DNA of 64,000 nt from positions 92-64,091 of the forward strand of contig CAZXJZ010000005.1 in NCBI GenBank assembly GCA_964641065.1, in the 5' to 3' direction. Positions 20,900-46,539 of the stretch are shown here, in pieces. The notes below the pieces were generated by a model. That model did not search any database. It was not told where the DNA came from and was given only the letters and a program-made list of their open reading frames with translations. This DNA is from an uncultured Hyphomicrobiales bacterium (lineage in GTDB: Bacteria > Pseudomonadota > Alphaproteobacteria > Rhizobiales > Xanthobacteraceae). A program made the translations under genes and the position numbers. How positions within the stretch are numbered: position 1 is the stretch's first letter; each line of letters opens with the position of its first letter.

Positions 20900-20967
20900 T
20901 AAAGAAGAGGTTAAACACCGTTGTGACCCGGAGAATTCAGCCGACCGCGCGTTAGCCTTTCCTTAAC
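20900..20967. promoter_or_regulatory. Two CtrA-type boxes upstream of the podJ-like gene
   Basis: Minus strand TTAA-cctcttc-TTTA (20900-20914) and plus strand TTAG-cctttcc-TTAAC (20952-20967), one mismatch each from TTAA-N7-TTAA. Confidence 0.6.
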
Positions 20968-21021
20968 AATTGTTTTTTGACGCTGCAGGTCGGGCGGACT
21001 CAGGCGGGCCGGCCTGCTGAA

Positions 21022-21348
21022 TCAGAAATACAAGGCGACCACGCCGCCGGCGCCTGCGATCATCGACATCGACACGACCAGCCAACCGACAAGCAGCCAG
21101 ACCGACCGCGTATACGGACGCCGCGAGCGCTTTCCGGGGCGGCGACCGATCCCTGAACGAGGATGGCTGACGACCAGCGCTTCGGCTGCGAGAGCGGAAG
21201 AGCTGGGCATATATTCCTCGGACAGATCGGCAATCGCGAGGGCGCGTTCCGGCGCTTTCGATGACGCGGCGCGGGCCGCAATTACCCCACGGATATGCTT
21301 TGACATGGCAAGGATCTCGTTCGACAGCGCCACAATACCCGCATCCAA
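21022..21348 (-). CDS. Small hypothetical protein with C-terminal TM helix
   Basis: Basic stretch RRPGKRSRRP then hydrophobic VWLLVGWLVVSMSMIAGAGGVVALYF; fills the gap between two genes. Confidence 0.55.
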   Translation of the reverse strand: MDAGIVALSNEILAMSKHIRGVIAARAASSKAPERALAIADLSEEYMPSSSALAAEALVVSHPRSGIGRRPGKRSRRPYTRSVWLLVGWLVVSMSMIAGAGGVVALYF

Positions 21349-21381
21349 ATGGAGCGAGCGATCAACTTGCCGCTACGGTAA

Positions 21382-21400
21382 ATAACGAAAATTTAACCAT
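21382..21400. promoter_or_regulatory. CtrA-type box
   Basis: ATAA-cgaaaat-TTAACCAT. Confidence 0.6.
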
Positions 21401-21452
21401 AGGGCGGCGCTGCGCGATTGCCGGCCCAGGGGCGGATCGCGTTGGCCGCCGG

Positions 21453-22910
21453 TCAATAGGCGTTCTTGTGAGCGGCTTTAGAGAACACCGTCGAGAACAG
21501 GATCTTGATGTCGAGCCAGATCGACCAATTGTCGATGTAATAAAGATCGCACAAGATGCGGCCCTGGAGTTGCTCCTCGGCGACGATCCCGCCCCGGAAG
21601 CCGTTGATCTGCGCCCAGCCGGTGATGCCGGGTTTGACATTGTGCCGCCGTGCATACAGCGCGATCTTCGATCCCCATGCGCGATCGTGAGCGAGGGCGT
21701 GCGGGCGCGGGCCGACAAGCGACATGTCGCCTCTGATCACATTGAGGATCTGCGGCAACTCGTCGATGCTCCACCGGCGCATGAAGTGGCCCAGGCGGGT
21801 GACGCGCTCATCGTGACGCGTGGCCTGACGGACATGCGCGCCGTCTTCCAGCGCGGACATCGTCCGGAATTTGTAGATCAGGAAAGACTTCTGATTGAAG
21901 CCGTAACGTTGCTGCCGGAACAGCACCGGGCCCGGACTATCGAGTTTGATCAGGATCGCGATCACGAGAAAGAACGGCAGAAGCGCCAGCAGAAGAAGCG
22001 ACGCAACCAGTATGTCGAACACCCGCTTGACGGTGGTGGCTGCGCCCGACATCGGCGGATTCAGCAGATGGAGACTTGCGATCGGTCCGAGCTTCTCGAT
22101 CGTGATGTGATCGAAGCGCTCCAGAATCCGTTCCGGCGCGAGGCTGATCGAGCACGGCAGCGTCATGAATGCATCGATGCAGCGATCGATCGTGGCCTGG
22201 TTCGACCAGGGTGCAATCAGCATGATGTTGTCCGGGGACAGCGCGCGCGCTTTCGCGACGGCGCTGTTCAGCGAGTCGCCTGTCTGGTCCTCGGTCGGCG
22301 ACAGATAGCCAATGCCGACGATCTGACACCCCAGGGAGCGGAGATTGTAGCGCTGGGTGAAATCGCGGACATCGGCCTCGTGTCCGACCAGAAACAGGCG
22401 CTGTCCGGAAATCAGCCCGAGCCGGCTTGCGGCATCGAAGGCGAGAACGCGCAGCACATACACGCTGGTGAGCGAGACCAGCCCGGCGACATAGAACAGG
22501 ACCAGCCATCCGCGCGAATAGAGAATGCTCGTCTTCGACAGGAAGCCGAGGATCACCAGGCAGATGAAGGCGAATGTCCAATAGCGTGCAATCTGCGCGG
22601 GACGCAGATCGAATTTCAGATGCTTCGAGAACAGATACTCGTCACGGTAGAGGCAGGGAATAAGGTAAAGCAGCGCGGTCATCAGTCCGACCTTGACGTA
22701 GTCGGTGAGCGGCCCCGCGTCCTGATAAACGAATGTGTGATAGAGCACGCCCGTGCCGACCGAGACGAGGATCACGGTGGCCGCGTCTGCGCCGCCGGCG
22801 ATCAGGGCAAGGGTGAAACGGCGCAGAGATGGCCGTGACACGATTGACGGGCCCGTTCCCGACCTTTGGTTCAACCAGGTATTCGTCACCGCAAACGCCG
22901 CCTGTTCCAA
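21453..22910 (-). CDS. wcaJ: Undecaprenyl-phosphate glucose phosphotransferase (initiating GT, WcaJ/GumD/ExoY type)
   Basis: N-terminal TMs, KRVFDI, IKLDSPGPVLFRQQRYG, KFRTM, SIDELPQILNVIRGDMSLVGPRPH, KPGITGWAQ, DLYYIDNWS. Confidence 0.93.
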   Translation of the reverse strand: MEQAAFAVTNTWLNQRSGTGPSIVSRPSLRRFTLALIAGGADAATVILVSVGTGVLYHTFVYQDAGPLTDYVKVGLMTALLYLIPCLYRDEYLFSKHLKFDLRPAQIARYWTFAFICLVILGFLSKTSILYSRGWLVLFYVAGLVSLTSVYVLRVLAFDAASRLGLISGQRLFLVGHEADVRDFTQRYNLRSLGCQIVGIGYLSPTEDQTGDSLNSAVAKARALSPDNIMLIAPWSNQATIDRCIDAFMTLPCSISLAPERILERFDHITIEKLGPIASLHLLNPPMSGAATTVKRVFDILVASLLLLALLPFFLVIAILIKLDSPGPVLFRQQRYGFNQKSFLIYKFRTMSALEDGAHVRQATRHDERVTRLGHFMRRWSIDELPQILNVIRGDMSLVGPRPHALAHDRAWGSKIALYARRHNVKPGITGWAQINGFRGGIVAEEQLQGRILCDLYYIDNWSIWLDIKILFSTVFSKAAHKNAY

Positions 22911-23157
22911 AAAGAGGCGGTTTGCGCGACCGCCATCGCTTGTGATGACGAGTCAGCAATTGCGGGGCCGCGGCCGCGTTTACCAATGGCGTCCGAGCGA
23001 GCGACTTGTGTTGCGCCTGAAAAATGCGGGTTCGTCTGAGTTGACGTGCGGCGTGCGCTGTGAGGCCGCGCCGCCCAGGCCGCCGCGACGCTGTGCCGGA
23101 TGTCCTAAGCTGGCACGCGAACGCGAAGCGCCGTGGCAGCGTTAATTCATGGCGCCA

Positions 23158-24426
23158 TTAATTGACGGACTTGACGTTGATCGTGTTCCGAAGCGCGAAG
23201 CCGTCGCCGGCCGTCGCAATCATGGTGCGGACGAATGTCAGGAACTTGGTGAAGTCGACGGTCGCCGCATTCGAGATGTAGATGACGTCCTTGTTCTGGA
23301 TCGGCGTTGAGGTCGCGAGAAAGTATCCGGCCGGATCGCCGAAATTCGCCCAGTAGATCACCGGGACCTGGCGGGTGTTGCCCCAGCGGCTGATGTCGAC
23401 GCCCAGTTCTGCGAGATATTCGGTCGGCTCCACGCGATAGATGAAGACCGTCCGCGGATCGGCCTGGGAGTCGATCAGGCCGCCGGCCTTGCCGACGGCT
23501 TCGGCCAGCGACAGGCGGTCCTGGTCGAAATTGAACTGGCCCTGCTGTCCGGTCGCGCCGAAGGCGAGAAATGTCTGCTGCTCGCTGAAGACGTAGATGG
23601 TGTCGCCGGGCTGCACGTTGATGTTGTTGTCCGGTTCCGCGATCAGCCGGTTGAAGCCGACCGTCTGCTTGTGGCCACGCCGCTGCAATGTGACAAATGT
23701 CTGCCAGCCCTGGTTCTTCGGACCGCCTGCGCGGGCAATCGAGTCGAGAATGCGTTCTCCCGGCAGCGACAGCGCAAATTTGAGCGGGCTGTTGACGTCT
23801 CCCATGACGCTGACAAGGTTCGAGCGTTGCTCGGCGATCGTGATGACGACTTGCGGCTCGATCGCCCGGTTTTTCAGGCGGCTGACGATGTCGCTTTGAA
23901 CCTCCGGCACGGTCCGGCCGGAGGCGCGAACCTGCCCCGCATAGGGAACGGTGATGTTTCCGGCGCGATCGACGGTCTGGTTGGGGATCTGGACGAAATT
24001 GCCGGGCCGTGATGCCGCCTGCAATGGAATGAACAGGCCGCCGGCCTGCGCCTCGAACACCGTGACTGCGACAACGTCGCCGACGCCAAGCCGGATGTCG
24101 GGCGCCGGCGGCCGGTCGGAAAACGTACCTACGCCCTTGAGCCCGCCGCGGCGTGAGAGCGCAGTCGCCACGCGAGGCGACAGCGGCACGAGTTCGTATT
24201 GAGCGTCCGGCCCGCCATTATAGGCCATGATGTCGGGGCTGTAGGGGCCCGATGCCGAAAACAGGCCGCAACCGGTCGTCAGCAGCGGAACGAGCGCGAC
24301 CGAGATGCGCGCCAGCCAGGTTCGCGCCCAAGCGGATTGCGGACGGGAACCGGCGCGGCTCGCACCCTCGCGGGGCAACCGGTCGCGCGGACCCACCGCA
24401 ACAATGGGGCACCTGAAAATCGTCAT
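23158..24426 (-). CDS. wza: Outer-membrane polysaccharide export lipoprotein
   Basis: Lipobox LLTTG-C; LGVGDVVAVTVFE, VDRAGNITVPYAGQV, two SLBB domains, DVIYISNA. Confidence 0.92.
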   Translation of the reverse strand: MTIFRCPIVAVGPRDRLPREGASRAGSRPQSAWARTWLARISVALVPLLTTGCGLFSASGPYSPDIMAYNGGPDAQYELVPLSPRVATALSRRGGLKGVGTFSDRPPAPDIRLGVGDVVAVTVFEAQAGGLFIPLQAASRPGNFVQIPNQTVDRAGNITVPYAGQVRASGRTVPEVQSDIVSRLKNRAIEPQVVITIAEQRSNLVSVMGDVNSPLKFALSLPGERILDSIARAGGPKNQGWQTFVTLQRRGHKQTVGFNRLIAEPDNNINVQPGDTIYVFSEQQTFLAFGATGQQGQFNFDQDRLSLAEAVGKAGGLIDSQADPRTVFIYRVEPTEYLAELGVDISRWGNTRQVPVIYWANFGDPAGYFLATSTPIQNKDVIYISNAATVDFTKFLTFVRTMIATAGDGFALRNTINVKSVN

Positions 24427-24472
24427 CGAACCCAGTTCGGCATGCGAGCACTGGGGCGATAATTCGAAGTTT

Positions 24473-24491
24473 ATGGTTAATGGAGCTTTAA
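24473..24491. promoter_or_regulatory. Perfect CtrA consensus box in the wza/wzc divergent promoter region
   Basis: TTAA-tggagct-TTAA (24477-24491) overlapping ATGGTTAA (reverse complement TTAACCAT, 24473-24480); TTAATCAT also at 24571. Confidence 0.75.
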
Positions 24492-24713
24492 GAAGCGCGG
24501 CCGCGTCCGCCGCGGGCGACCGTATTCCGCCGCTTGATACTATTCGGCCGTGTCCGGCGCGGGCCGGCAGTTAATCATTCAAGGGCTGTTTGCTTGCGCC
24601 GCAGGAGGCGATGCCATATCCGGCTTTGGGGGGTAGGCCTTTGTCGGGCGGCCGTTTTTCGAACCGACAACGTCTCACGGCACGGGACGTAAGTGTGTGA
24701 GTAGGTCATCGCC

Positions 24714-27008
24714 ATGCTTAACGCCAGCCCGCTCAGGCGACCGGAGATCAGCGCACCGACCGCGCCGGGGTCGGACGGCAACGTTGCGATCGACCTCCAC
24801 GGTATCTTCCGGTTCTTGCGCCGGCGTGCGGTTGTCATTGTCGCCGTTGCTGCAGTGACAGGCCTGATGGGTTTGATCTACAGCCTGACGGCAACTCCCA
24901 AATATACGGCAGCTTCCCGGGTTCTGGTCGACAACAGCAGCATCAAGGCGTTGCGCGACCAGTCTGCGACGTCGGATTCACCTGTGTCGGTTACGCTCGA
25001 CAGCCAGGTCGAGATCATCAAGTCCGAGCGTGTGCTCCAGCGCGTCGTGAAGCAGCTGAACCTCGCAAAAGAGCCGGAGTTTCAGAAGCAGCCGGGCCTG
25101 GTGACCAAACTCAAGAACACGATCGCCGGACTGATTTCACCCGGAGAAGTCGAGCAGGCGGAGCCTTTCGAGGACGAACTGCTGGTCGACTGGCTGAGAA
25201 GCGATCTCGATGTCCGGCGCGTCGGCTTCACCAATGTGATCGAGATCAGGTTTACGTCGCGCAATCCGGAACAGGCGGCGCGAGTCGCGAACGCCGTCGC
25301 CGATGCCTATCTCGCCGATATTCTGGAAGCAAAACACGAGATGGGCCGGCGTGCCGGACTCTGGCTCGAAGAGCGTTTGAAGCAATTGTCGGAACAGACC
25401 TCGGAGTCCGACAAGGCGGTCCAGAAGTTCAAGTCGGACAACAACATCGTCAACACCGGGCGCGGCCTGATCAACGAGCAGCAGATCGCCGAGGTCAGCA
25501 CGCAGATCATTCTGGCGCGGACACAGGTTGCCGAGGCGAAGGCCCGGTGGGACCGTGTCGAAGAAATCCTGAAGGGCGACGCCAGCGACGCGACGATTAC
25601 CGAGTCGCTGCGAAACGACGTCATCGTCAGGCTGCGCCAGCAATATCTGGAAGTCGCGCGGCGCGAAGCCGAGCTGTCGGCGCGCTATGGCTTCAAGCAC
25701 ATGGCCGCGGTCAATCTGCGAACCGAAAAGAACCAGCTTCTCGACAACATCAAGGATGAGCTCCGGCGCATCGCGCAGAGCTACAAAAGCGATTACGAAA
25801 TCGCAAAGCTTCGCGAGACGACCCTGCAGAACAGCCTCGACGCGCTTGTGTCGCAGACACAGAACACCAATCAGGCGCAGGTCAAGCTTCGCGCCCTGGA
25901 AAGCGCCGTCCAGACGTCGCGCGAAGTGCAGGAAAATTTCCTCAAGAAATACATGGAAATCGCGCAGCAGGAGTCCTTCCCGGTCACCGAGGCGCGGATC
26001 ATCTCGACGGCGAAGACGCCCCGCTACAAGAGTTCGCCCGCGACCACCCGCATCACACTGGGGAGCGGCTTTCTCGGTCTGTTTCTCGGCCTGATTTTCG
26101 CTCTCGGCCTCGAGGCGACCGACTCGACCTTCCGCACACAGGGTCAAGTCGAAGACGTTCTCGGCTGCAAGGCGCTGGGAATCTTGCCGGACATCGGCCA
26201 TCCGACATTGCCGTACCGCACGCTGCGCAGCGGTTCGATGGCGCGCGCCGGTCCCGGAAAACGCTTGCTCAGCGACGATCTTGGATCGCTGCGCTATGCA
26301 GTCGACAATCCCACGTCGCACTTCGCCGAGACGTTGCGCCACGTCAAGCTCGAGGCGGCCGCCATTGCGCCGGTCGCAAGCGGCGGCCAGGTGATCGGCT
26401 TCTGCTCGACCAGACCAGGTGAAGGCAAGAGCTTCGTCGCCGCGAACTTCGCCGAGGCGATGGCCGATAGCGGCCGGAGTTGCATTCTGGTCGACTGCGA
26501 TCTGCGGTATCCGGCGCTGACCTATATGCTCAGCCCGGAAGCGGATTACGGTTTGGCCGAAATCGTCAAGGGGCGGGCGGCGCTGGATGGCGCGGTCTGG
26601 ACGGACAGTCTGACAAGAATGGCGTTCATGCCTGCCGCTTCGCAGGGGCAGGTTCACAATCCGCACGATCTGCTCGCTTCGGCGGGCCTGCAGGATCTCG
26701 TCGAGGCGCTCCGCAAACGGTACGACTTCGTCGTGCTCGATCTTCCGCCCATCGTCCCATTCGCGGATGTTCGCGCGATGATCGACGTCGTAGATTCGTT
26801 CGTCTTCATCGTCGAATGGGGCAATACGAGCCGCGACGCGGCGTTGTCCGCGCTCCGGGCCGCGCCCGGCATCGAGGACAAGCTTCTCGGTTGTCTTCTG
26901 AACAAGGCCGACGTGGACAAGCTCAGTCACTATTGCCGCAACGGCGAGAGCAACTATTACGATCGGTATCGCGCGGGCCAGGGCTACAAGCGGGGCATGC
27001 GGGCATGA
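24714..27008 (+). CDS. wzc: Polysaccharide co-polymerase / BY tyrosine kinase (Wzc/ExoP/GumC)
   Basis: Two TMs flanking a coiled-coil periplasmic domain; Walker A PGEGKS, Walker A' LVDCDLR, Walker B VVLDLPP; C-terminal Tyr cluster HYCRNGESNYYDRY..GY. Confidence 0.95.
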   Translation: MLNASPLRRPEISAPTAPGSDGNVAIDLHGIFRFLRRRAVVIVAVAAVTGLMGLIYSLTATPKYTAASRVLVDNSSIKALRDQSATSDSPVSVTLDSQVEIIKSERVLQRVVKQLNLAKEPEFQKQPGLVTKLKNTIAGLISPGEVEQAEPFEDELLVDWLRSDLDVRRVGFTNVIEIRFTSRNPEQAARVANAVADAYLADILEAKHEMGRRAGLWLEERLKQLSEQTSESDKAVQKFKSDNNIVNTGRGLINEQQIAEVSTQIILARTQVAEAKARWDRVEEILKGDASDATITESLRNDVIVRLRQQYLEVARREAELSARYGFKHMAAVNLRTEKNQLLDNIKDELRRIAQSYKSDYEIAKLRETTLQNSLDALVSQTQNTNQAQVKLRALESAVQTSREVQENFLKKYMEIAQQESFPVTEARIISTAKTPRYKSSPATTRITLGSGFLGLFLGLIFALGLEATDSTFRTQGQVEDVLGCKALGILPDIGHPTLPYRTLRSGSMARAGPGKRLLSDDLGSLRYAVDNPTSHFAETLRHVKLEAAAIAPVASGGQVIGFCSTRPGEGKSFVAANFAEAMADSGRSCILVDCDLRYPALTYMLSPEADYGLAEIVKGRAALDGAVWTDSLTRMAFMPAASQGQVHNPHDLLASAGLQDLVEALRKRYDFVVLDLPPIVPFADVRAMIDVVDSFVFIVEWGNTSRDAALSALRAAPGIEDKLLGCLLNKADVDKLSHYCRNGESNYYDRYRAGQGYKRGMRA

Positions 27009-27057
27009 AGTGGGTCAGCGCGGTCAAGCGGCCGTCGTCCCGGGGATTGCGTCCGCG

Positions 27058-28221
27058 ATGACCGGCACAATTCTCGTCAATCATCTGCTCGAGCCGCCGA
27101 ACCTGATTTCCGGGATCTCGCGCTATCTGTTTGCCTTGCTCGAGGAACTGGCGCAGTCGCGGCGCTATCGCTATGTGCTCGCGACCACATGGGATGCCGA
27201 AAGTCTCCCGGCATCGTTGCGGCAGACGGCGATCGACATCCGCACTCTTCCCTATCATCCGAAGACGCCGGTCAACGTCATGAGCCAGGTCGCGACCGTG
27301 CCGCGGCTGATGCGCGAGACCGGCGCCGCGCTCGAGTTCAACTGCAATCCGGTCGGGTGTTTCTGGGGAGGCTGGCCGCGCGTCATCACCGTGCATGACA
27401 TGTACATGGAGACGATGCCCGATTCCTATCCGCTGAGGCATCGACTGTGGTGGAAGGCCCTGTTTCCGCTCAGCCTGCGAGCGGCCTCGGCGGTCGTCTG
27501 CGTGTCGCAGGCCACGCGGCGCGATGTCGAGACGCGATATCCGTTCGCCCGGGACAAGCTCGCTGTGGTCCATGAAGCGCCGATCATCGATGCTGCGCAA
27601 CCCGGCGTGCCGCAGCCGGATGGCCGGTTCGACACACCCTATGGCCTTTATGTCGGCAATGTCTCGCCGAACAAGAATGTCGCCATTCTCGTCGAAGCGC
27701 TGAAGCAGCTGAAGCGGGATGGCGATGCGCCCGTCATCTGTCACATCGGTCGTGACCAGGCCGGGCTTCTGGCCGAGGCGGAACGGCGCGCGGGCGGCAA
27801 CATCATCCGCAAGATGGGCACGCTGTCGGATGCCGACCTCGTCAGCGCCTATCGCGGCGCGACCTGCTTCATCAATACGTCGCTGAACGAGGGCTTCTGC
27901 CTCCCGGTGGTCGAGGCGCAGTCTCTCGGCGCGCCAGTCATCTGTGCCGATATTGCGGTGCTGCGCGAGGTCGCCGGCGAGGGTGCGCTGTTCTTTCCGC
28001 CGCATGACGCAGCGGCACTGGCGAGCCGTATCCGATCGATCTTCGGCGATGCGCAATTGCAGCGGCGGATGTCGCGAGCCAGCCTCGATAACGCCGCGCG
28101 CTTCTCGTGGCGCAAGGCAGCCGGCGAGACCGAAGCGATCTTCGATGCGGCCCTTACCGGGTACACGCGGCCGGCAACCGCGGATCTGCCGCAACAGGCG
28201 GGAGCGTTCGGTGACCGGTAA
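27058..28221 (+). CDS. Glycosyltransferase family 4
   Basis: VITVHD, VCVSQATR, YVGNVSPNKN, SLNEGFCLPVVEAQSLGAPVI. Confidence 0.93.
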   Translation: MTGTILVNHLLEPPNLISGISRYLFALLEELAQSRRYRYVLATTWDAESLPASLRQTAIDIRTLPYHPKTPVNVMSQVATVPRLMRETGAALEFNCNPVGCFWGGWPRVITVHDMYMETMPDSYPLRHRLWWKALFPLSLRAASAVVCVSQATRRDVETRYPFARDKLAVVHEAPIIDAAQPGVPQPDGRFDTPYGLYVGNVSPNKNVAILVEALKQLKRDGDAPVICHIGRDQAGLLAEAERRAGGNIIRKMGTLSDADLVSAYRGATCFINTSLNEGFCLPVVEAQSLGAPVICADIAVLREVAGEGALFFPPHDAAALASRIRSIFGDAQLQRRMSRASLDNAARFSWRKAAGETEAIFDAALTGYTRPATADLPQQAGAFGDR

Positions 28222-29338: not shown

Positions 29339-29365
29339 GTTGCCACCAGCGTCTGCGGGCGGCTG

Positions 29366-29384
29366 TTTAGATTTCGTTAACCAT
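29366..29384 (+). promoter_or_regulatory. CtrA-type box upstream of the small secreted repeat protein
   Basis: TTTA-gatttcg-TTAACCAT. Confidence 0.6.
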
Positions 29385-29431
29385 ACCGGCAGCAGATTGC
29401 GCGCTGAATCACCGTCTCGGGAGGCGCTCGC

Positions 29432-29710
29432 ATGAAGCCATTTCTTCTCGCCGGAGCTTTTCTGATCGCGGCGTCCGCTTATGCCGAAGCGCAGACCGCG
29501 CCGACACCGGCTCGGATCAATTCCCGTGTTGATTCGCTGAGATACAATTCCAATCCGAGCACGCTCGGGCCGAACGATTCACAAAGCCAGTATGGGTTGA
29601 GCAACCGGACGGATTCACGAATTCGCTCGCGGGTCGACTCGCTCAACTACAATACCAATCCGAGCCAGTTCCGGATTGTCGATCCGCGATTCAACGTTCA
29701 GCGGTTCTGA
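29432..29710 (+). CDS. Small secreted protein with an internal 16-aa repeat
   Basis: GGGAGG RBS; signal peptide MKPFLLAGAFLIAASAYAEA-Q; RINSRVDSLRYNSNPS and RIRSRVDSLNYNTNPS. Confidence 0.85.
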   Translation: MKPFLLAGAFLIAASAYAEAQTAPTPARINSRVDSLRYNSNPSTLGPNDSQSQYGLSNRTDSRIRSRVDSLNYNTNPSQFRIVDPRFNVQRF

Positions 29711-33123: not shown

Positions 33124-33168
33124 GCCGGGACGGATCGATCACAGGCCTGTGCTGACAAGGGATATGAC

Positions 33169-38662: not shown

Positions 38663-39653
38663 TTGGTCGATCTCGGTTGTCATCAACAACTACAATTACG
38701 CCGAGTATGTCGGGGCGGCGATCGAGTCCGTGCTCGGACAGGTCGGCGTCGAAGTGGAATGCATCGTCGTCGATGACGGGTCGACGGACGGATCGCGATC
38801 CGTCATCGAGTCCTATCCGGGCGTCAAACGCGTCTACAAAAGCAATGGCGGTCAATTGTCTGCCCTGCAGGCGGGCTTCGCGCAGGCGAGCGGAGACATT
38901 GTCGTCTATCTGGACTCCGACGATTTCCTCGCACTCGATGCGTGTCACGAAATCACGCAGGCGTGGCGCGCGGAGTTATCGCTTCTGCAATATGGCCTCG
39001 AGATCATCGACGGCGCAGGCAGGACGATCGGTTCCTATCCCAACCAGAAATTTGTAGCCCATGGTCATCTGGGCTTCCTGTTGCGCTATGGATACATCCC
39101 GTCTTCCCCGATGTCGGGAAATGCGTTCTCGCGAGCGTATCTCGCCAGCTTGTTCTCGGTGCCTGCGCCCAGCGATCACATGGCCGCTGACGGATACCTT
39201 GTGTATTGCGCACCGCTCTACGGCCAGGTCGGACAGATCGACCGGAACCTGGGATACTATCGTGTCCATGGGCGGAACGCGTCCCCGTCCGCAAGCGTCA
39301 ACGCTCAGTCTCTTCAGCGTCAGCTTTTGAATGACATCAAGTTTCGGGAGGGGCTGGTTCGCAACATGGCTCGCTTCGGACTGAACACGGATGCGCCTTT
39401 GCAATATCTCGGGCCTTATGACTTCCGGACGATCCTGCTCCTGAACAGGGGCTATCGCGACATTACGAAAGTAGGCGACATCGGATTCCCGTTCGCTGCC
39501 GCGCAGGCGATCAAGAAGTTCATCACTTATCCCGGCATTCCCCTCTGGAAGCGCGCGAAGAATATCCTGGCGGTGGTTGCAATTGCAGGGCTTCCGCCGG
39601 CCATGGTTCGCCGCTTCCTGCCCGGCAAGCCCGCCGGTTCGGCGGGGCTTTGA
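38655..39653 (+). CDS. Glycosyltransferase family 2
   Basis: SVVINNYNY, VVDDGSTDGS, NGGQLSA, LDSDD, YRVHGRN. Confidence 0.93.
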   Translation: MRDWSISVVINNYNYAEYVGAAIESVLGQVGVEVECIVVDDGSTDGSRSVIESYPGVKRVYKSNGGQLSALQAGFAQASGDIVVYLDSDDFLALDACHEITQAWRAELSLLQYGLEIIDGAGRTIGSYPNQKFVAHGHLGFLLRYGYIPSSPMSGNAFSRAYLASLFSVPAPSDHMAADGYLVYCAPLYGQVGQIDRNLGYYRVHGRNASPSASVNAQSLQRQLLNDIKFREGLVRNMARFGLNTDAPLQYLGPYDFRTILLLNRGYRDITKVGDIGFPFAAAQAIKKFITYPGIPLWKRAKNILAVVAIAGLPPAMVRRFLPGKPAGSAGL

Positions 39654-39665
39654 GGCGGGATCGTC

Positions 39666-41147
39666 ATGGATAATTTGAAAGGGCGGACACTTCGCGGAGG
39701 CCTTGCCAAGGTTTGCGGCCAGGGCGCGAACTTTGCTTTGCGTTTCGCCTACCTCATGATCCTCGCCCGGCTGCTGACACCGGAAGACTTTGGTCTTGTT
39801 GCCATGGTCACCGTGGTGACGGGTGTGTTTGAGCTTTTTACGTCTGCCGGGTTGTCGTCCGCGATGGTTCAGCAGGCGACGATCACCAACCAGCAGATTT
39901 CCAAATTGTTCTGGGTCAACCTGCTGGTTGGCGCCTTGCTCGCGCTTCTGTGCGTCGCAACAGCGCCGTTGCTCGTGCGCTTTTTCCATGAACCACGGTT
40001 GTTGTGGGTCACGATCGCGATGGCCCCCGCCTTCCTGTTCGGTGCGGCTGGGGTTCAGCACATGGCGATCCTGCAGCGCCAGTTGCGCTATGTCACCATC
40101 ACGGTGATCGAGATCGTTGCATTGCTGTCCAGCATCGCCGTCGGAATCGGGATGGCGCTCACCGGATTCGGCTATTGGGCGATCGTGGGTGCAGCCGTCA
40201 CCGTGCAGGCGGTGTCGACCATCTGTGCCGTCGCGGTCACCAGGTGGATCCCCGGCCGCTTCGACGCGTCGACGAGTATCGGTTCGATGTTGCGCTACGG
40301 CGGGACGGTGACCCTGAGCGGCGTGGTCGTCTATATCGCCTACAATCTCGATAAGGTGCTGCTCGGCCGGGTGTGGGGCGTCGAAGCACTCGGCGTCTAC
40401 GGAAGGGCCTATCAGCTCATCAATATCCCGATCTCAAATCTGAACGTGGCGGTAGGCGGGGTCGCCTTTTCCGCGCTGTCGCGGCTTCAGGATGATCCGG
40501 TTCGCTTCAAGGCCTATTTCCTCAAGGGTTATTCGCTGGTCGTGTCGATGACGATTCCGGTCACGATCTTCTGCGGCGTATTCGCTGACGAGATTGTGAC
40601 GGTCGTGCTGGGGCGACAATGGAGTGAAGCGGCGCCGATTTTCCGCCTGATGTCTCCGACCATCCTGATATTCGCGATGATCAATCCGCTGTCGTGGGTG
40701 CTGTTCTCGGTTGGATTGCAGCGCAGGAGTTTGAAGATCTCCCTGACGATGACGCCGCTGCTGGTGGTCGCATATCTGATCGGCCTGCCTTACGGCGCGA
40801 ATGGCGTCGCGGCCGCGTATTCCGCGGTAATGGCGCTCTGGCTTGTCCCGCATATCGCGTGGTGTCTGCACGGCACGTCGATCTCACTGAAGGAGCTGTT
40901 CTCAGCCATCAGTCGCCCGCTGCTGTCAGGGCTCATCGCTGCCGGCGCAGCGATCGGGATCGGTCTTTACGTTAACGACGCTTACGCGCTGTCGCCGCTG
41001 ATGAGGCTGTGCCTCGGCGGTGGCGCGATGGCCGTGATCTACGCTGTCGTTCTGCTGTTTATCTTAAGACAGAAAGACCTCTATCTGGATGTGCTTCGTG
41101 GCTTGAAACAACCGTCAAGTGCTAATACCTACGGATCTCTACTGTAG
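39666..41147 (+). CDS. wzx: Wzx flippase (WzxC-like)
   Basis: LARLLTPEDFGLVAM, 12+ TMs, NLDKVLLGR..G..ALGVYGRAY. Confidence 0.93.
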   Translation: MDNLKGRTLRGGLAKVCGQGANFALRFAYLMILARLLTPEDFGLVAMVTVVTGVFELFTSAGLSSAMVQQATITNQQISKLFWVNLLVGALLALLCVATAPLLVRFFHEPRLLWVTIAMAPAFLFGAAGVQHMAILQRQLRYVTITVIEIVALLSSIAVGIGMALTGFGYWAIVGAAVTVQAVSTICAVAVTRWIPGRFDASTSIGSMLRYGGTVTLSGVVVYIAYNLDKVLLGRVWGVEALGVYGRAYQLINIPISNLNVAVGGVAFSALSRLQDDPVRFKAYFLKGYSLVVSMTIPVTIFCGVFADEIVTVVLGRQWSEAAPIFRLMSPTILIFAMINPLSWVLFSVGLQRRSLKISLTMTPLLVVAYLIGLPYGANGVAAAYSAVMALWLVPHIAWCLHGTSISLKELFSAISRPLLSGLIAAGAAIGIGLYVNDAYALSPLMRLCLGGGAMAVIYAVVLLFILRQKDLYLDVLRGLKQPSSANTYGSLL

Positions 41148-41165
41148 TTTTCTCTACTGTAGTTT
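41136..41165. repeat. Exact 15-bp tandem duplication over the wzx stop codon
   Basis: TCTCTACTGTAGTTT x2. Confidence 0.9.
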
Positions 41166-41249
41166 TGAGCGCGGGGCGGCGAAACGAAAGCTGGCCATCC
41201 GAGATCTCCCTGACGGAGCGTCTCTGATCTGGCCGACACTGGGACGTTA

Positions 41250-42323
41250 GTGATGTTGCGTGCAGGTGATTGGATCGAAGTTCGCGGTAAGGACGAAATT
41301 CTGAAAACCCTCGACAAGCAGGGTCGCCATGAAGGGCTTCCCTTCATGCCGCAAATGTTCAGCTTTTGCGGAAAGCGCTTTCAGGTTTTCAAGCGGGCGC
41401 ACAAGACCTGCGATACCGTGGATCGAACCGGCGGCCGCAGCCTTCCCGACACTGTCCATCTGGATCTTCGTTGCGACGGCAAGGCTTATGGCGGCTGTCA
41501 GGCTGCGTGCCTGATCTTCTGGAAGGAAGCCTGGCTCAAAGCAGTCGATGCCGCGGACGTGTCCTTGGCGGTGTCGAGTGACCGGACTCTGAATGCGGGC
41601 AAGGGCGCGGTCTGCACGGAAGACGATGTCTGGAAGGCCGTTCGACGCGTCGACAGCGCAAATCCTAAAGAGATCCGCTACGCGTGCCAGGCAACCGAGC
41701 TGCCGCGCTTCACAACGCCGTTGCCGTGGTGGGACCTCAGGCAATATGTCGAGGACTATACGTCCGGCAACACATCGCTTGGCCGGATCGTGCGCGGGGC
41801 TCTTTACGCCGCGTATTATAATGGGACCCTGGCCTATCGTGACAAAATCGGCCGGCCGGCGCGTTGGCTCTACGATGTCACTCAATCCCTGTGGCAGGGC
41901 GTGCCGTTTCCTCGCAAGAAGGGCCGGCTACCGGACGGGAGGCCGGCGACAGACGAACAGCAGTTCGAGCCGGGCGATGTTGTTCGGATCAAATCCTATG
42001 ACGAGATTCTGTCGACCCTCGACCGGGGCAACAAGCTTGGTGGCTTGTTCTTCGATGCGGAGATGGTGCCGTTTTGCGGCGGCACCTATCGCGTCAGGTC
42101 CAGAGTCAAAAATTTTCTGAACGAAAAAACTGGCAAGCTGGTCGCGCTCAAGGCCGGCGCCGTCATGCTGGAGAATGTCTGGTGTCAATCCCGCTACAGT
42201 GATTGCCGGATGTTCTGTCCGCGCGCAATTTATCCGTGGTGGCGCGAAGAATGGCTGGAGAAGGTGTCCGACAGTCCCGCGCGCGCGGTAGACGGCAGAC
42301 GTCAGATGCCGGACGCGGCCTGA
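41250..42323 (+). CDS. Hypothetical protein made of two homologous Cys-containing domains
   Basis: Repeat 1 LRAGDWIEVRGKDEILKTLD..LPFMPQMFSFCGKRFQV..C..C...WKEAWL; repeat 2 FEPGDVVRIKSYDEILSTLD..LFFDAEMVPFCGGTYRV..C..C..WREEWL. Confidence 0.85.
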   Translation: MMLRAGDWIEVRGKDEILKTLDKQGRHEGLPFMPQMFSFCGKRFQVFKRAHKTCDTVDRTGGRSLPDTVHLDLRCDGKAYGGCQAACLIFWKEAWLKAVDAADVSLAVSSDRTLNAGKGAVCTEDDVWKAVRRVDSANPKEIRYACQATELPRFTTPLPWWDLRQYVEDYTSGNTSLGRIVRGALYAAYYNGTLAYRDKIGRPARWLYDVTQSLWQGVPFPRKKGRLPDGRPATDEQQFEPGDVVRIKSYDEILSTLDRGNKLGGLFFDAEMVPFCGGTYRVRSRVKNFLNEKTGKLVALKAGAVMLENVWCQSRYSDCRMFCPRAIYPWWREEWLEKVSDSPARAVDGRRQMPDAA

Positions 42324-42411: not shown

Positions 42412-43569
42412 TTATTTGCCCATGAGCGCCGAGACGATGGCGTTGTAGGCTGGCTTCGGCCGCATGTCGAAATCGAACGGCAGGGTGCGCGGCATCCTCA
42501 CATCGGAGAGGCGCCCGGCCATGATGTTTTCCGCGCCCGATGTATGCCTGTCGCTGAGCTCCCAGGTAACGAGCAGCTTGACTGCGTCGACCGACAGGAC
42601 ATCCCTGAGATACATCTGGTAAAAATCCGCGACGCCCTTGTCGCGCTTTGCGAAATCGTCGGGAAACGGCGAATCGTCCACGTCGAGTTCGGTGATGTAG
42701 ATGTCGAGGCCCATCGCCTTGATCGCATGCATGAACGCGAGCAGGGAATCGCGATCATATTCGTCGCGGAATTTCGGCGACATGTGCGATTCCATGCCGA
42801 TCGCGTCGAGCGGCACATTCTCGTCACGCAGGCGCCTGACCAGGTCGAGGAAGTGGCTGCGGAATTTCGACCACGGCGAGCCCGGCTTGCGGGACCGGTT
42901 CTTCGCGAACGGCGAGTCGTACCATTTGTACTCGAGGAAGGCCTCGTTCAGCACCAGTTTGGCGGCCGGGTCGGCCTGCCTGGCGCGCCTGAAGCTTCGG
43001 GCAATGTAATCGCGGCCCATGGCATTGTACCACGGTCCGCCACGCAGGCCGCCCTCATGCCCGCTCTCGATCCAGATCGGCTCGTTGACCACGTCCCACG
43101 AATGCACGCGCCCGGCATAGCGGCCGGCCACGTCGTCGATATGGCGATCCAGCAGCCGTTCCATCTCGCGCGCGGACATGCGGCGCGTCCAGTCCGGCAT
43201 GAAGTCGTTCCAGATCAGCGTGTGTCCGCGCATCTTCAGATTGCATGTCGCCGCAAACGCGAACAGCCGGTCTGCGACCGTGAAGTCGATCGTATCCGGA
43301 CCGCCACGCAGCGCGCCGAATTTCAGGCTGTAGTCGGGTGTCAGGATCGCGCATTCGTCGCAGAGAAGCTTCGCATAGGGCGGGTTCGCGTAAATGTGCT
43401 GGTCGAATGCCGACCCGAACAGGATGCCGCGCGCCGCCGCGACGTCGCGCGCTTTCTTTGCAGGAGCGACCACGCTGCGCGCTGGGGATGCGGCGAGAAA
43501 CGTCGCTCCGGCGAGGGCTGCCATGCCGCGCAGGACGTTCCGGCGATTGCTGGGGATTTCCGGGTGCAT
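42412..43569 (-). CDS. Tat-exported glycoside hydrolase family 10 (xylanase-like)
   Basis: Twin-arginine signal NRRNVL; RGHTLIW, WDVVNEP (acid/base Glu), ITELDV (nucleophile Glu). Confidence 0.93.
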   Translation of the reverse strand: MHPEIPSNRRNVLRGMAALAGATFLAASPARSVVAPAKKARDVAAARGILFGSAFDQHIYANPPYAKLLCDECAILTPDYSLKFGALRGGPDTIDFTVADRLFAFAATCNLKMRGHTLIWNDFMPDWTRRMSAREMERLLDRHIDDVAGRYAGRVHSWDVVNEPIWIESGHEGGLRGGPWYNAMGRDYIARSFRRARQADPAAKLVLNEAFLEYKWYDSPFAKNRSRKPGSPWSKFRSHFLDLVRRLRDENVPLDAIGMESHMSPKFRDEYDRDSLLAFMHAIKAMGLDIYITELDVDDSPFPDDFAKRDKGVADFYQMYLRDVLSVDAVKLLVTWELSDRHTSGAENIMAGRLSDVRMPRTLPFDFDMRPKPAYNAIVSALMGK

Positions 43570-43861
43570 GGCGGTCGCTATCACGCACCGTGAAGGCGGT
43601 CAAAACAACGAAAAGTCAGACGCTGCGGCGGCGTGCATTAAGGTAAAGGCTATGGCGTTTTGGTTAATCCGCCAATTGGGCTGTCATGAGCGAAAGGAGG
43701 TCATATAAAACCACGATGCGTGCGATGCCCGGTTCAATCGCGCGCGGGGGACGACGCAGGAACCTTACAAATCAGCAATGATTGGCTGATGCGAGCGGCG
43801 AAATTTGGTGATGCTCAATTTGTCAGCCGATGTTGAAATAGTGAAAAGTGCCGTATCCCCC

Positions 43862-44704
43862 ATGACAACGTATGACGTCGAACTGGGCCGTCTCAACAGC
43901 CCAAAGCAGAAACTGCTGTCCCGTTTCCCGAAGCAGGCCGTGTATGCGCGATACATCAAGGCGCTGTTCCGCGGCGAAGTCGAATTACGGCTGCTTCCGT
44001 TTTTGTGCAACCGCTCGCTCGTGTCGCTGGATATCGGCGCGCATCACGGAATCTATACGCTCGGCACCAGTTTGTTTTCCCGTCGCGTGGTTTCGGTCGA
44101 ACCGCAATATCATCTGGCGCAGACGCTGCGGAAGTCGATGCCGCCGCGCACGACGCTGATCGAGGGTGCTTTGTCGCGCGAGGCCGGCGAGGCGACGCTG
44201 CGTATTCCCTTGCGCGAATGGGACTCGCTGTCGCATCTGGATTTCGGCGGCGAGGACGACAGCCGGTGGCGCTCACAGCGGGTGCGGCTGTTCCGTATGG
44301 ACGACATCGTTCAGGCGCCGGTCGGCTTTGTGAAGGTCGATGTCGAGGGCCATGAACGCGAAGTGCTCGAGGGCGCGCTCCGGATCGTTGAACAAGACAA
44401 GCCGGTCTTCCTGATCGAGATCGAGGAACGGCACCGTCCCGGATCGGTTGCGGACATCGTGGCTTTCATGGAGGGGCACGGATATCGCAGCTATTTCGTC
44501 GAAGGCAATCTGATCCGCCCGATCCATGAATTCGACATCGCGCGCCATCAATCCACATCGCTGATCGGCGCGGGCGATCGCGCAAGCTACAAGGACTACA
44601 TCAACAATTTCATTTTCGTCCCGCCGCATGTGAGCGTGCCGGCGTCGGTGCCGTCTCCGTGGCAGGCTTTGTCGGTCAGCCTCGGTCGAATTCTGGCGGG
44701 CTGA
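43862..44704 (+). CDS. FkbM-family SAM-dependent methyltransferase
   Basis: LDIGAHHGIYT, VVSVEPQ, FVKVDVEGHEREVLEGA; start uncertain (43805-43862). Confidence 0.9.
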   Translation: MTTYDVELGRLNSPKQKLLSRFPKQAVYARYIKALFRGEVELRLLPFLCNRSLVSLDIGAHHGIYTLGTSLFSRRVVSVEPQYHLAQTLRKSMPPRTTLIEGALSREAGEATLRIPLREWDSLSHLDFGGEDDSRWRSQRVRLFRMDDIVQAPVGFVKVDVEGHEREVLEGALRIVEQDKPVFLIEIEERHRPGSVADIVAFMEGHGYRSYFVEGNLIRPIHEFDIARHQSTSLIGAGDRASYKDYINNFIFVPPHVSVPASVPSPWQALSVSLGRILAG

Positions 44705-44763
44705 TCGCCTGAAACGCAAGCGGGCAGATTGCAGGCGCTGCCAACTATCGAATCGCAAGGGCG

Positions 44764-46062
44764 GTGATTGAGATGCTGGCAAGACAGGAACTGCCGGACG
44801 TTATGAATGAGGCGGATGGCGTTCAGGCGTCGCGGGCCTCGCGTCCGCACATGCTCTGCCTGATCCATCCGATCGATCCGCGCGGCAACAAGGTCGGCGG
44901 CATCGAGACCCATGTTCGCATGCTTCTGGCGCATGCGCCGCGCGACTGGCAGGTCCTGCTGGTCGGCGTTGACGGCCGCGGCGATTGCCGTGTCGGCGAA
45001 ATGCAGCGCCTGACGCTGGAAGGGCGGACGTTCGATTTTCTACCGGTGCTGCATTTTCCGGACGACCAGACGCAGGCGGCGCGGTCGATCTTTGCCTCGC
45101 TGACGTTCCGGTTTGGGGCCGGCTTGCTTAGGCATTTCGCGACGCTGCGGCGCGCGATCCGGGCAACGCCCAGCGCCACCATCGAACTGCAGCGGTTCGA
45201 ATTCGCGGTTCTTGGACCGCTGCTCGGCCGTCCGACCGTTCAGGTGATCCACGGCGAAGGCTCAAAGTCCGACAAGATGGATTCGCTGATCAAGAAATTC
45301 TGGTTCCTGCACCGCATGAACGAGGAGATCGCGATCCGGCTGGCCGGCGGAATCATTTGCGTGAATCCGAACATCCTCGCACGGCTCGAGCGCGAGAAGC
45401 CGGACGCAGCGAGACGCGCGGTGTTCATGCCGGTCGCGGTCGATGCTGAGATTTTCAAGGCGGCGGCGTTCGACAAGGCGGATGGCATCTTTCGTGTGGT
45501 GTTTGCAGGCCGGTTCGATGAGTTCAAGAATCCGCCCTTGATGTTCAAGAGCCTGCGACGCCTGCACGAGCGTCTGGGCGGCAGGGTCGAGTTTCATTAC
45601 ATCGGCACCAGCGACCCGTCGCGCTATCCCGAATTCGAGCTGGTGCGGCCGTTCACGACGTTCCATGGCTTCCGGACCTCGCGCGAGGTGGCTGACATCG
45701 TGAAGCGGTGCCACGCCGGCATTCTGACCTCATGGTTCGAGGGGATGCCGTGCTACCTGCTTGAACTGCTGTCGGTCGGACGGCCGGTCGTTGCGGTGAC
45801 ATTGCCGCAATACAAGCTGGTGATCGCGCCGGCCAAGAGCGGCTATCTGGTCGAGCGCCTGGACGAGGCCGGGCGCATGATCGACGACGAGCGCCTCGCC
45901 GACGCATTGGCGGACCGGCTGGCCGCTGTCTGGTCGGCAATCCAGCGCGACGCCCTGTCCGTCGATGCGATCCGGGACTGCGCAATGCCGTATTCGGTCG
46001 ACGTGCAACTCGATCGGCATTTCGCGCAGCATCGGCAGCTCATTGCCGGACGGGCAGCCTGA
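44764..46062 (+). CDS. Glycosyltransferase family 4
   Basis: GGIETHVR, FAGRFDEFKN, SWFEGMPCYLLELLSVGRPVV. Confidence 0.9.
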   Translation: MIEMLARQELPDVMNEADGVQASRASRPHMLCLIHPIDPRGNKVGGIETHVRMLLAHAPRDWQVLLVGVDGRGDCRVGEMQRLTLEGRTFDFLPVLHFPDDQTQAARSIFASLTFRFGAGLLRHFATLRRAIRATPSATIELQRFEFAVLGPLLGRPTVQVIHGEGSKSDKMDSLIKKFWFLHRMNEEIAIRLAGGIICVNPNILARLEREKPDAARRAVFMPVAVDAEIFKAAAFDKADGIFRVVFAGRFDEFKNPPLMFKSLRRLHERLGGRVEFHYIGTSDPSRYPEFELVRPFTTFHGFRTSREVADIVKRCHAGILTSWFEGMPCYLLELLSVGRPVVAVTLPQYKLVIAPAKSGYLVERLDEAGRMIDDERLADALADRLAAVWSAIQRDALSVDAIRDCAMPYSVDVQLDRHFAQHRQLIAGRAA

Positions 46063-46112
46063 CGCGCGCGAGGCGCATTTCACGCGCATGACGCGCCGCC
46101 TGCGACGCGCGG

Positions 46113-46436
46113 CTATTCGCCTTGCGCGCCGGATCGAAGGATCGCGATCCCGATTTCGTTTTCCGAACGCCACACGACCTGGCATTGCCAGAGTCCGTCC
46201 TCATGGCCTTTGACCCGCAACTGAAACACGTCGGGCATGTCGGCGACGCTTCGGCCCATCAATCTCGCGCCGCGCGCCGACACGTCGGTGAGCCAGAACG
46301 GACTGGTCTGCGTGCCATCGCCGCTATCGACGCAGTAGAAGGTTGGCGTTTCCAAGCGCGTCTGGTGCGGCGAGTGACTCGGCGAAGGCTTCATTGATTT
46401 CGTTTCGGGCCGCGTTTGCGGCGGACGAAAACTCAT
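46113..46436 (-). CDS. PilZ-domain protein (RxxxR motif degenerate)
   Basis: LTDVSARGARL, MPDVFQL, CQVVWRSENEIGI typical of PilZ barrels; start 46436 or 46394. Confidence 0.8.
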   Translation of the reverse strand: MSFRPPQTRPETKSMKPSPSHSPHQTRLETPTFYCVDSGDGTQTSPFWLTDVSARGARLMGRSVADMPDVFQLRVKGHEDGLWQCQVVWRSENEIGIAILRSGAQGE

Positions 46437-46539
46437 ACTGGTGCCGCCGGACCGGTTCCATGCGTGGCTGAGGTTAACCTTACTTGCCGCGGCTGGCGCT
46501 CGTGTCACCAGCCGGCGTCGCACCGAGAGTTAGGCGGCG

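Follow-up and report, generated by a model that had tools for sequence, protein, structure and literature searches.

What reads the TTAA boxes that stand ahead of nearly every transcription unit of a polysaccharide locus, and are they regulatory sites at all? The question is raised by a contig of an uncultured Hyphomicrobiales bacterium (CAZXJZ010000005.1), of which a stretch of 64,000 nucleotides was analysed (hereafter the window; GC 63%, nearest relatives uncultured Hyphomicrobiales and Pseudorhodoplanes). Gene calls were made by codon-usage scoring and Pfam/NCBIfam scans, which delimit one envelope module spanning ~17.2 to 46.5 kb. An earlier note, made from the sequence, had proposed that the boxes are sites of the cell-cycle regulator CtrA and that the whole locus is a cell-cycle regulon producing a stage- or pole-specific polysaccharide. 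In our reading the boxes are probably real cis-regulatory sites placing about a dozen transcription units under one global regulator, which would most probably be CtrA (probability roughly 0.65). The module is best explained as an Omp25-like porin, a PodJ-like protein with Sel1 repeats (Sel1 protein) and a Wzx/Wzy-dependent polysaccharide locus that includes a deoxy-sugar pathway, with a second, orphan wza-like gene (wza2) belonging to the same set. CtrA control is the best explanation because CtrA is the only known regulator with a TTAA-N7-TTAA site: alphaproteobacteria use CtrA with this conserved site (PMC4083442, PMC7003649), and no other alphaproteobacterial regulator with such a site was found in the literature searched (PMC4083442, PMC6847485, PMC7003649).

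Motifs were scored by consensus strings, not by a published matrix, and counts refer to the 64-kb window, with 20900-46483 as the range of the locus unless limited further. All 11 sites listed by the earlier note were found where it had placed them, and TTAA is as scarce as it had claimed, with 29 occurrences in 64 kb against ~74 expected from base composition, 22 of them in 20900-46483. Against whole-window shuffles, the perfect TTAA-N7-TTAA box occurs once (24477-24491; 0.01 expected) and the box with at most one mismatch six times (one perfect, five with one mismatch; 1.7 expected), while TTAACCAT occurs four times (0.30 expected) and TTAACC 13 times (5.9 expected), all of these intergenic. 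Since intergenic DNA is AT-richer, a composition-matched null was built from 2,000 dinucleotide shuffles of intergenic DNA alone. In the 2,795 bp of locus intergenic DNA (GC 0.609) we counted 17 TTAA against 5.8, nine TTAACC against 0.67, three TTAACCAT against 0.03 and five full boxes with at most one mismatch against 0.32, values that were reached by 0 of the 2,000 shuffles and amount to a 3- to 100-fold excess. The extended form (G/A)TTAACCAT(A/G) with at most one mismatch was found six times in the same 2.8 kb (0.19 expected).

The excess is not due to AT-richness, because the 2,482 bp of intergenic DNA outside the locus, with the same GC (0.606), holds five TTAA against 4.85 in its own shuffles and thus no excess; compared directly, inside and outside differ with a binomial P of 0.004. 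Five relatives gave the same picture, with 3.4 TTAACC per 10 kb inside the locus against 0.34 outside, and 2.3 full boxes per 10 kb against 0. The wzc loci of Bradyrhizobium, Agrobacterium and Bosea, 575 kb in all and not orthologous, served as negative controls; TTAACCAT was absent from these, and no box was found within 700 bp upstream of their wzc genes except in five Bradyrhizobium loci with a one-mismatch CTAA-N7-TTAA 320-385 bp upstream. The earlier note had named a motif density no higher than in other intergenic DNA as the outcome that would speak against it; when this comparison was run, the boxes proved ~10-fold enriched in the locus. GANTC sites (CcrM/GcrA) are not enriched, with five in locus intergenic DNA, one of them conserved.

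Conservation carries the argument further. Syntenic comparators were available for the left half (L001, 89% nucleotide identity; L002 and L004, 70-78%; L038, L041 and L042, with Sel1 proteins 56-59% identical), for the right half (L036, 85%; L037, 75%) and for wza2 (L043, L045, L046 and L048, 65-83% amino-acid identity). Ten of the 11 listed sites and six further sites are conserved in up to six of these relatives while the flanks have diverged. Three-way alignments of intergenic DNA have 2,232 columns, of which only 35% are invariant, and five of the eight invariant blocks of at least 10 nt are TTAA boxes. The longest of all (24471-24492, TTATGGTTAATGGAGCTTTAAG, 22 nt) and the second longest (29370-29385, GATTTCGTTAACCATA, 16 nt) are canonical boxes; the other three lie at 29763-29774, 32466-32476 and 36042-36051. 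The TTAA at 35919, 23142 and 23158 are not conserved. Judged from these alignments, the boxes are kept by selection in at least seven genomes, and the wza2 box is retained in four more.

The boxes fall into two classes (Table 1). Class 1 consists of TTAA-N7-TTAAC with a (C/G)CAT extension and is found in two copies at each of the porin and the Sel1 protein and also at wza and a small secreted protein; its extended half-site recurs at wza2 and wzc. In sequence, this left-hand set is the exact CtrA-box architecture, with TTAA half-sites 11 bp apart, a free spacer and the (C/G)CAT extension. Boxes h and i keep their half-sites across seven genomes while the 7-nt spacer is free; box h retains ATGGTAAA...GTTAA around variable spacers, and box i has the perfect motif in four relatives, each with a spacer of its own, together the signature of a dimeric direct-repeat binder. 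The match to the CtrA consensus claimed earlier is thus borne out by TTAA-N7-TTAA, by conserved half-sites with free spacers and by three exact (G/A)TTAACCAT(A/G) 10-mers, at 7773, 24472 (minus strand) and 29376. This 10-mer is the extended CtrA box that Fumeaux et al. derived from SciP chromatin immunoprecipitation sequencing (ChIP-seq) and described as characteristic of CtrA promoters of late S phase (PMC4083442). In front of wza, wza2 and the small secreted-protein gene, TTAACCAT ends 44-47 nt ahead of the ATG; an overlap of the box with the -35 region is therefore probable and would match what is seen in promoters activated by CtrA. The wza2 box is further accompanied by a conserved GTGA 7 nt upstream of its TTAA. 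At wzc, a half-site (TTAAKCAT) stands ~20 nt upstream of a conserved promoter-like block, CTGTTTGCTTGC...GATGCCATATCC, in which we infer that CTGTTTGCTTGC is the -35 and GATGCCATATCC the -10 element; a scan of the wza/wzc gap for E. coli-type promoters gave no match.

Class 2 has two TTAA-like tetramers only 6 bp apart (TTAAGGTTAAC, TTTAGGTTAAT, TTAGGCTTAAC, TTAGCGTAAAC, TTAAGGTAAAG, GTAAGGTTAAC, TTTTGGTTAAT) and precedes the sugar-nucleotide, glycosyltransferase, Wzy/Wzx, GH10/FkbM and PilZ-like units. On the opposite strand it reads RTTAACC-W-W-A-A, one to three mismatches from the extended half-site. A palindromic reading of this TTAA-N2-TTAA (N2) box (AGGTTAACCT at 46472) fails for the other copies.

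The earlier view that the boxes are non-random and lie in promoter regions can be sharpened at this point: with the addition of three small unlisted genes (21022-21306, 29432-29710 and 46113-46436) every box comes to stand upstream of a gene start, and it was because these genes were unlisted that some boxes had seemed to lie outside promoters. The site at 46474-46483, in particular, was not in a gap between convergent genes as had been thought, since it lies upstream of the minus-strand gene 46113-46436. A site is indeed present at 32466-32475, although the 'TTAACCTTAA' given for it is the reverse complement of the plus strand, which reads TTAAGGTTAA. Within 20900-46483 the pattern and the listed sites hold, but three sites had been missed (22979-22986, 29763-29774 and 32330-32341), and the pattern also reaches the porin promoter at 17255-17300 and wza2 at 7773-7794.

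Table 1. Boxes and genes of the envelope module and of wza2, with positions in the window and the state of each box in relatives.
Feature	Position	Strand	Context or basis	State in relatives
wza2 box, GTTAACCATAcagggGGTTAAT	7773-7794	+	44 nt upstream of wza2; exact (G/A)TTAACCAT(A/G)	TTTGTTAACCATA and GTTAAT invariant in L043, L045, L046, L048 (down to 65% protein identity); flanks diverge
Porin box 1, TTTA-CGTTCCG-TAAACCATA	17255-17274	+	degenerate full CtrA-type box with ACCAT extension	conserved in L004, L038, L041, L042
Porin box 2, TTAT-CCATTCA-TTAAGCATAA	17280-17300	+	one mismatch to TTAA-N7-TTAA	TCATTAAGCAT invariant in five genomes (window and four relatives)
Box h, TTAA-CCTCTTC-TTTACTAT (minus strand)	20897-20914	-	111-128 nt upstream of Sel1-protein ATG	ATGGTAAAGAAnnnGTTAA kept, spacer variable, in L001, L002, L004, L038, L041, L042
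Box i, TTAG-CCTTTCC-TTAAC	20952-20967	+	one mismatch	one mismatch in L001, L002; perfect TTAA-N7-TTAA in L004, L038, L041, L042 (spacers CGATTTC, AGATTCT, CAATTTC, CGCGGTG)
ATAA-N7-TTAACCAT	21382-21400	+	orientation opposite to other extended boxes	
Half-site-like TTTACCAA	22979-22986	+	~30 nt upstream of transferase gene	TTTACCAA in L001, L002, L038, L041; TTAACCAA in L042; L004 not aligned there
Box j, CTTAA-AGCTCCA-TTAACCATAA (minus strand)	24471-24492	-	perfect TTAA-N7-TTAA with extended half-site; ends 46 nt upstream of wza ATG	22-nt block identical in L001, L002, L004, L038, L041; two changes outside TTAA tetramers in L042
wzc promoter region, TTAATCAT half-site, then CTGTTTGCTTGC and GATGCCATATCC	24571-24621	+		half-site reads TTAAGCAT in relatives; region conserved in seven genomes
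Box k, TTTA-GATTTCG-TTAACCATA	29366-29385	+	ends 47 nt upstream of small secreted-protein ATG	GATTTCGTTAACCATA invariant in L002, L004; TTAG-GATTTCG-TTAACGAG in L038
Box a, TTAGGCTTAACA	29763-29774	+	109 nt upstream of WecG-family transferase gene	invariant in L002, L004, L038
Box b, GTTAGCGTAAAC	32330-32341	+	divergent gap, NTP-transferase/PIG-L and RmlC-like operons	at most one change in L002, L004, L036
Box c, TTAAGGTTAAC	32466-32476	+	68 nt upstream of RmlC-like/DRL-oxidoreductase operon	invariant in L002, L004, L036; flanks diverge
Box d, GTTTAGGTTAAT	36041-36052	+	106 nt upstream of Wzy(VpsF-like)-GT2-GT2-Wzx-unknown operon; 280 nt from divergent epimerase gene (35760 to 34714)	TTTAGGTTAA invariant in L002, L004
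Boxes e (TTAAGGTAAAG) and g (TTTTGGTTAATC)	43638-43669	+	divergent gap, GH10 gene and FkbM-methyltransferase/GT4 operon	both kept in L036; GTTAACCCTAAAG and TGGTTAACCTAAAG at same places in L037
Box f, GTAAGGTTAACC (minus strand)	46472-46483	-	~37 nt upstream of likely ATG of PilZ-like gene	GTAACGTTAAT in L036, GTAACGTTAAC in L037
Second, orphan wza-like gene (wza2), 217 amino acids (aa)	7826-8479	+	Poly_export and SLBB	
Omp25/RopB-type porin (outer-membrane beta-barrel)	17393-18118	+	Pfam OMP_b-brl	
Sel1 membrane protein, 804 aa	18372-20786	-	Pfam Sel1	
Small membrane protein, ~94 aa, C-terminal membrane anchor	21022-21306	-	below threshold of open reading frame (ORF) list	
WcaJ-like initiating polyprenyl-phosphate sugar-phosphate transferase	21453-22952	-	Pfam Bac_transf	
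wza (outer-membrane polysaccharide export protein)	23158-24426	-	Pfam Poly_export and SLBB	
wzc (chain-length/tyrosine-kinase protein), then two GT4 glycosyltransferase genes	24714-29338	+	Pfam	
Small secreted protein, 92 aa, signal peptide, internal repeat	29432-29710	+	ORF	
WecG-type (WecG-family) transferase	29883-30686	+		
Nucleotidyl-transferase (NTP-transferase) and PIG-L deacetylase operon	32170 to 30700	-		
RmlC-like and DRL-oxidoreductase operon	32545-34494	+		
Epimerase/dehydratase	34714-35760	-		
Operon VpsF-family (Wzy-like), GT2, GT2, Wzx, unknown	36159-42323	+		
GH10 glycanase	42412-43584	-		
FkbM methyltransferase and GT4 operon	43805-46062	+		
Small gene, weakly PilZ-like	46113-46436	-	ORF and sub-threshold PilZ match	

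If CtrA is the regulator, phosphorylated CtrA (CtrA~P) would occupy class 1 boxes overlapping or adjoining the -35 of three genes (wza, wza2 and the secreted-protein gene) and, for the porin, the Sel1 protein and wzc, sites that lie farther upstream. The RTTAACCATR form suggests activation in late S phase followed by SciP repression in newborn cells. The TTAA-N2-TTAA boxes would be read as sites of the CtrA half-site type, TTAACCTTAA being one mismatch from TTAACCAT, and the outcome would be a surface-polymer synthesis timed to a cell-cycle stage. No DNA-binding protein gene was found in the locus by Pfam and NCBIfam scans, which fits a global regulator encoded elsewhere.

Several observations weigh against CtrA control of the entire module. 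About half of the boxes are TTAA-N2-TTAA and not canonical CtrA sites; the 6-bp instead of 11-bp spacing of these seven matches no described CtrA dimer site, and four of the seven are two to three mismatches from RTTAACCATR. In boxes j and k the spacers are invariant as well, a constraint beyond the half-site contacts of CtrA. The site at 21382-21400, which the earlier note had listed and which is present, is not conserved past the closest strain: L001 retains its TTAACCAT only in the form TTAACTAT, and L002, L004, L038 and L041 lack it where their sequences align, so this one is probably not functional. No -10 element is recognisable at a fixed distance after the boxes, and activation and repression therefore cannot be told apart by reading the sequence. 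Finally, ctrA itself is absent from the 64-kb window, and a search with Caulobacter CtrA for the ctrA of this lineage had only Caulobacterales proteins among the matches listed.

The seven N2 boxes also lend themselves to another explanation, in which two regulators share the module: CtrA at the N7 boxes only (porin, PodJ-like protein, wza, wzc, small secreted protein, wza2) and a different, undescribed sequence-specific factor at the N2 boxes. The two classes do lie apart, N7 at 17.2-29.4 kb and at 7.8 kb, N2 at 29.8-46.5 kb, and a 6-bp spacing sets both TTAA on opposite helix faces, unlike any described CtrA site. The pattern TTARSSTWAAY, although defined post hoc, has four occurrences in the window against 0.01 expected and none in the 575 kb of control loci, which argues for a specific element in its own right, and a literature search for the N2 strings returned unrelated matches only and no described site. 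Yet conservation within the N2 boxes is highest over GGTTAAC/GTTAACC, which is the core of the CtrA half-site; a single mismatch separates three of these boxes from RTTAACCATR, and L037 exchanges TTAAGGTAAAG for TTAACCCTAAAG with TTAACC kept. CtrA also acts at isolated half-sites (PMC7003649), and no regulator gene is linked to the locus. On balance we hold two regulators to be unlikely, though clearly the strongest of the rivals. A related and equally tentative proposal is that TTAA-N2-TTAA (TTAAGGTTAAC) is a distinct, undescribed site, bound either by CtrA in a non-canonical mode (two half-sites spaced by 6 bp, on opposite sides of the helix) or by a new partner factor. Such a site might split the locus into two temporal classes, with the export machinery, porin and PodJ-like protein behind CtrA/SciP boxes and the sugar, glycosyltransferase and polymerase operons behind N2 boxes, so that the polymer would be assembled in a set order during the cell cycle, with the PodJ-like protein perhaps directing assembly to a pole.

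A zinc-finger silencer of the MucR/Ros type, for which the AT islands would be nucleation sites rather than CtrA sites, was the alternative raised by the earlier note. Such proteins are the classical regulators of exopolysaccharide genes in rhizobia: synthesis in Sinorhizobium is under their control, and in GC-rich genomes they bind to AT-rich sites whose T-A steps lie less than 10 nt apart (PMC5693944, PMC4083442); TTAA contains a T-A step, and MucR shares many target promoters with CtrA in Caulobacter and S. fredii. The proteins bind degenerate AT-rich cores of at least 5 bp, centred on a T-A step, through the minor groove and with no base-specific readout (PMC5693944, PMC4083442), a mode that does not predict exact-base conservation, G/C flanks or 11-bp phasing. 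Here the AT cores are mostly 4 bp with G/C flanks, the exact bases including the flanking GG, CC and CAT are invariant across genomes, and the 11-bp spacing with its free spacer is conserved. Enrichment does not extend to AT-only tetramers in general, and intergenic DNA of the same GC elsewhere in the window shows no excess. MucR in place of CtrA is therefore quite improbable, while co-occupancy with CtrA, as in Caulobacter G1 promoters, is plausible in view of the shared targets.

That no dedicated regulator is involved and the boxes are chance products of AT-rich promoter DNA, of -10/-35 elements or of a horizontally acquired low-GC island might be read from the lower GC (0.59-0.60) and variability between relatives of the 36-44 kb segment and from the general confinement of TTAA to intergenic DNA, but this is refuted as far as sequence analysis goes by the composition-matched shuffles and same-GC intergenic DNA without excess, by boxes that are the longest invariant blocks in alignments otherwise 35% invariant, by their retention in seven genomes and at the unlinked wza2 in four more, and by control exopolysaccharide loci without boxes. 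CenR, the other essential OmpR-family envelope regulator, uses TGA-N8-TGA (PMC9275681) and was ruled out on motif, the conserved blocks being TTAA-based.

The genes behind the boxes include the full Wzx/Wzy-dependent set together (Poly_export, Wzz/GNVR/AAA_31, Polysacc_synt_3, VpsF-family, Bac_transf and GT2/GT4/WecG in Pfam and NCBIfam). The VpsF-family model scores 170.6 bits on the Wzy-like protein (cut-off 150), and for the initiating transferase the best model is of WcaJ type (TIGR03023, 407.9 bits against a cut-off of 410.75). The porin starts at ~17393 and not at the GTG at 17195, since the aligned ATG is conserved and orthologues have 240-241 aa. As for the small genes, 21022-21306 is called as a gene of 93-94 aa in L038, L041 and L042, and 29432-29710 shows coding-type conservation in L002 and L004 and has a 92-aa call in L038; neither has a family match, both are syntenic in all relatives, and the 92-aa secreted protein carries an internal repeat, SRxDSLxYNxNPS. 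The PilZ match of 46113-46436 (E = 0.009, 16.8 bits) is below the Pfam cut-off, with coding-type conservation in L036 and L037, and the product may be a cyclic di-GMP (c-di-GMP) receptor attached to the locus. The gene wza2 sits among unrelated metabolic genes 10 kb from the main locus, and its synteny with malic enzyme, HbpS-like, MsrA and DLH genes is retained in relatives. The DRL-oxidoreductase gene is missing from L002 and L004 and present in L036, and the lower-GC Wzy/GT2/Wzx segment is exchanged for other genes in L036 and L037, from which the locus appears as a conserved export/initiation core with a variable sugar/polymerase part. A promoter gap within the replaced segment of L036 again holds TTAACC-type strings (L036rc 6212, 6265).

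Other conserved elements accompany these genes. The 5' leader of wzc (24622-24713, ~95 nt) is conserved in seven genomes and can form a hairpin in which TTGTCGG (~24641-24647) pairs with CCGACAA (~24664-24670) and one pair shows a compensatory change; wzc may be controlled post-transcriptionally through this leader, and an Rfam scan of 20-47 kb, the leader included, gave no match. Conserved non-coding blocks other than TTAA boxes were seen at 23101-23110 (TGTCCTAAGC, in the gap between wza and the transferase), at 32289-32297 (GGAATCAAG, containing a GANTC methylation site), at 43596-43608 (GCGGTCAAAACAA, near the GH10 start) and at 21361-21388 (ATCAAnTTGnCGCTAnnGTAAATRAC, upstream of the small gene 21022-21306).

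For a placement of the polymer at a pole, as the earlier note had suggested, the support is circumstantial and comes from the Sel1 protein. Like PodJ, this protein crosses the membrane once (~residues 463-487), with its N-terminal part in the cytoplasm and its Sel1 repeats in the periplasm, and after its orthologues the next-best homologues, its nearest non-orthologous relatives, are annotated 'localization factor PodJL' (40-56% identical, in the Sel1 part only); its gene also carries two conserved CtrA-type boxes. PodJ, whose cytoplasmic part is a coiled coil, has 900-1400 aa against 804, the similarity covers 25-30% of the protein, and the C-terminal PG_binding_1 domain of PodJ (PF01471) is absent from the Sel1 protein in Pfam scans, which makes it a PodJ paralogue at best. 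A holdfast or unipolar polysaccharide locus was considered and rejected, as the HfsE model reaches 224.8 bits against a cut-off of 750 and the WcaJ-type model fits best. With the HfsE cut-off missed, the PilZ match below threshold and the likeness to PodJ limited to the periplasmic repeats, pole-specific placement of the polymer remains speculation.

Near-identical sequence occurs in biofilter, wetland, aquifer, biocrust, root and algae-associated metagenomes, and the lineage is environmentally widespread and little studied. The favoured reading, control by CtrA, predicts that a whole Wzx/Wzy pathway is tied, one operon after another, to the master regulator of the cell cycle, and the comparative support for this prediction is unusually good. 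If true, no clearer case would exist of exopolysaccharide synthesis gated by the cell cycle than this locus-wide arrangement. The TTAA-N2-TTAA class provides a concrete candidate for a new type of site. The boxes are short and well defined, and thus suited to reporter and electrophoretic mobility shift assays in cultured Pseudorhodoplanes.

In comparison with known systems, the predicted sites share with the CtrA boxes of Caulobacter, Sinorhizobium and Brucella the consensus, the 11-bp half-site spacing with a free spacer, the promoter-proximal position and an alphaproteobacterial host. Against the CtrA regulon as described, the density is unusual, with 16 or more conserved boxes spread over ~13 transcription units within 30 kb, and half of the boxes have a 6-bp spacing that is undescribed for CtrA. 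In Brucella abortus, CtrA ChIP-seq targets include outer-membrane biogenesis and lipopolysaccharide synthesis genes, and levels of outer-membrane proteins fall on CtrA depletion (PMC10787603). This is likewise an envelope set in Hyphomicrobiales/Rhizobiales, and here an Omp25-family porin and polysaccharide genes carry boxes; Brucella, however, has no Wzx/Wzy exopolysaccharide locus with Wza and Wzc, whereas here a complete one is covered operon by operon.

Putative CtrA sites with the same consensus (TTAANNNNNNGTTAAC) were reported for the succinoglycan (exo) genes of Agrobacterium tumefaciens in a study of PdhS2 and DivK (PMC7003649), likewise an exopolysaccharide pathway with predicted sites; those were called at >=7 conserved motif nucleotides and without a conservation test. 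The Agrobacterium wzc-homologue loci among our controls have no box in the 700 bp upstream of wzc and are not orthologous to ours (34% Wzc identity). In Caulobacter, CtrA binds the promoter of the holdfast glycosyltransferase gene hfsJ, PhfsJ (PMC6847485). Holdfast (PhfsJ, hfiA) and capsule (the CtrA-dependent inhibitor HvyA) embody the same concept, a cell-cycle regulator that gates a surface polysaccharide, but control there runs through single genes or inhibitors (hfsJ, hfiA, hvyA), whereas here boxes precede nearly every biosynthesis and export operon, and the initiating enzyme of the holdfast is HfsE where this locus has a WcaJ-like transferase. CtrA control of envelope and polysaccharide genes is thus already known, and what sets the present locus apart is its coverage operon by operon, how deeply the boxes are conserved and the arrangement of class 2.

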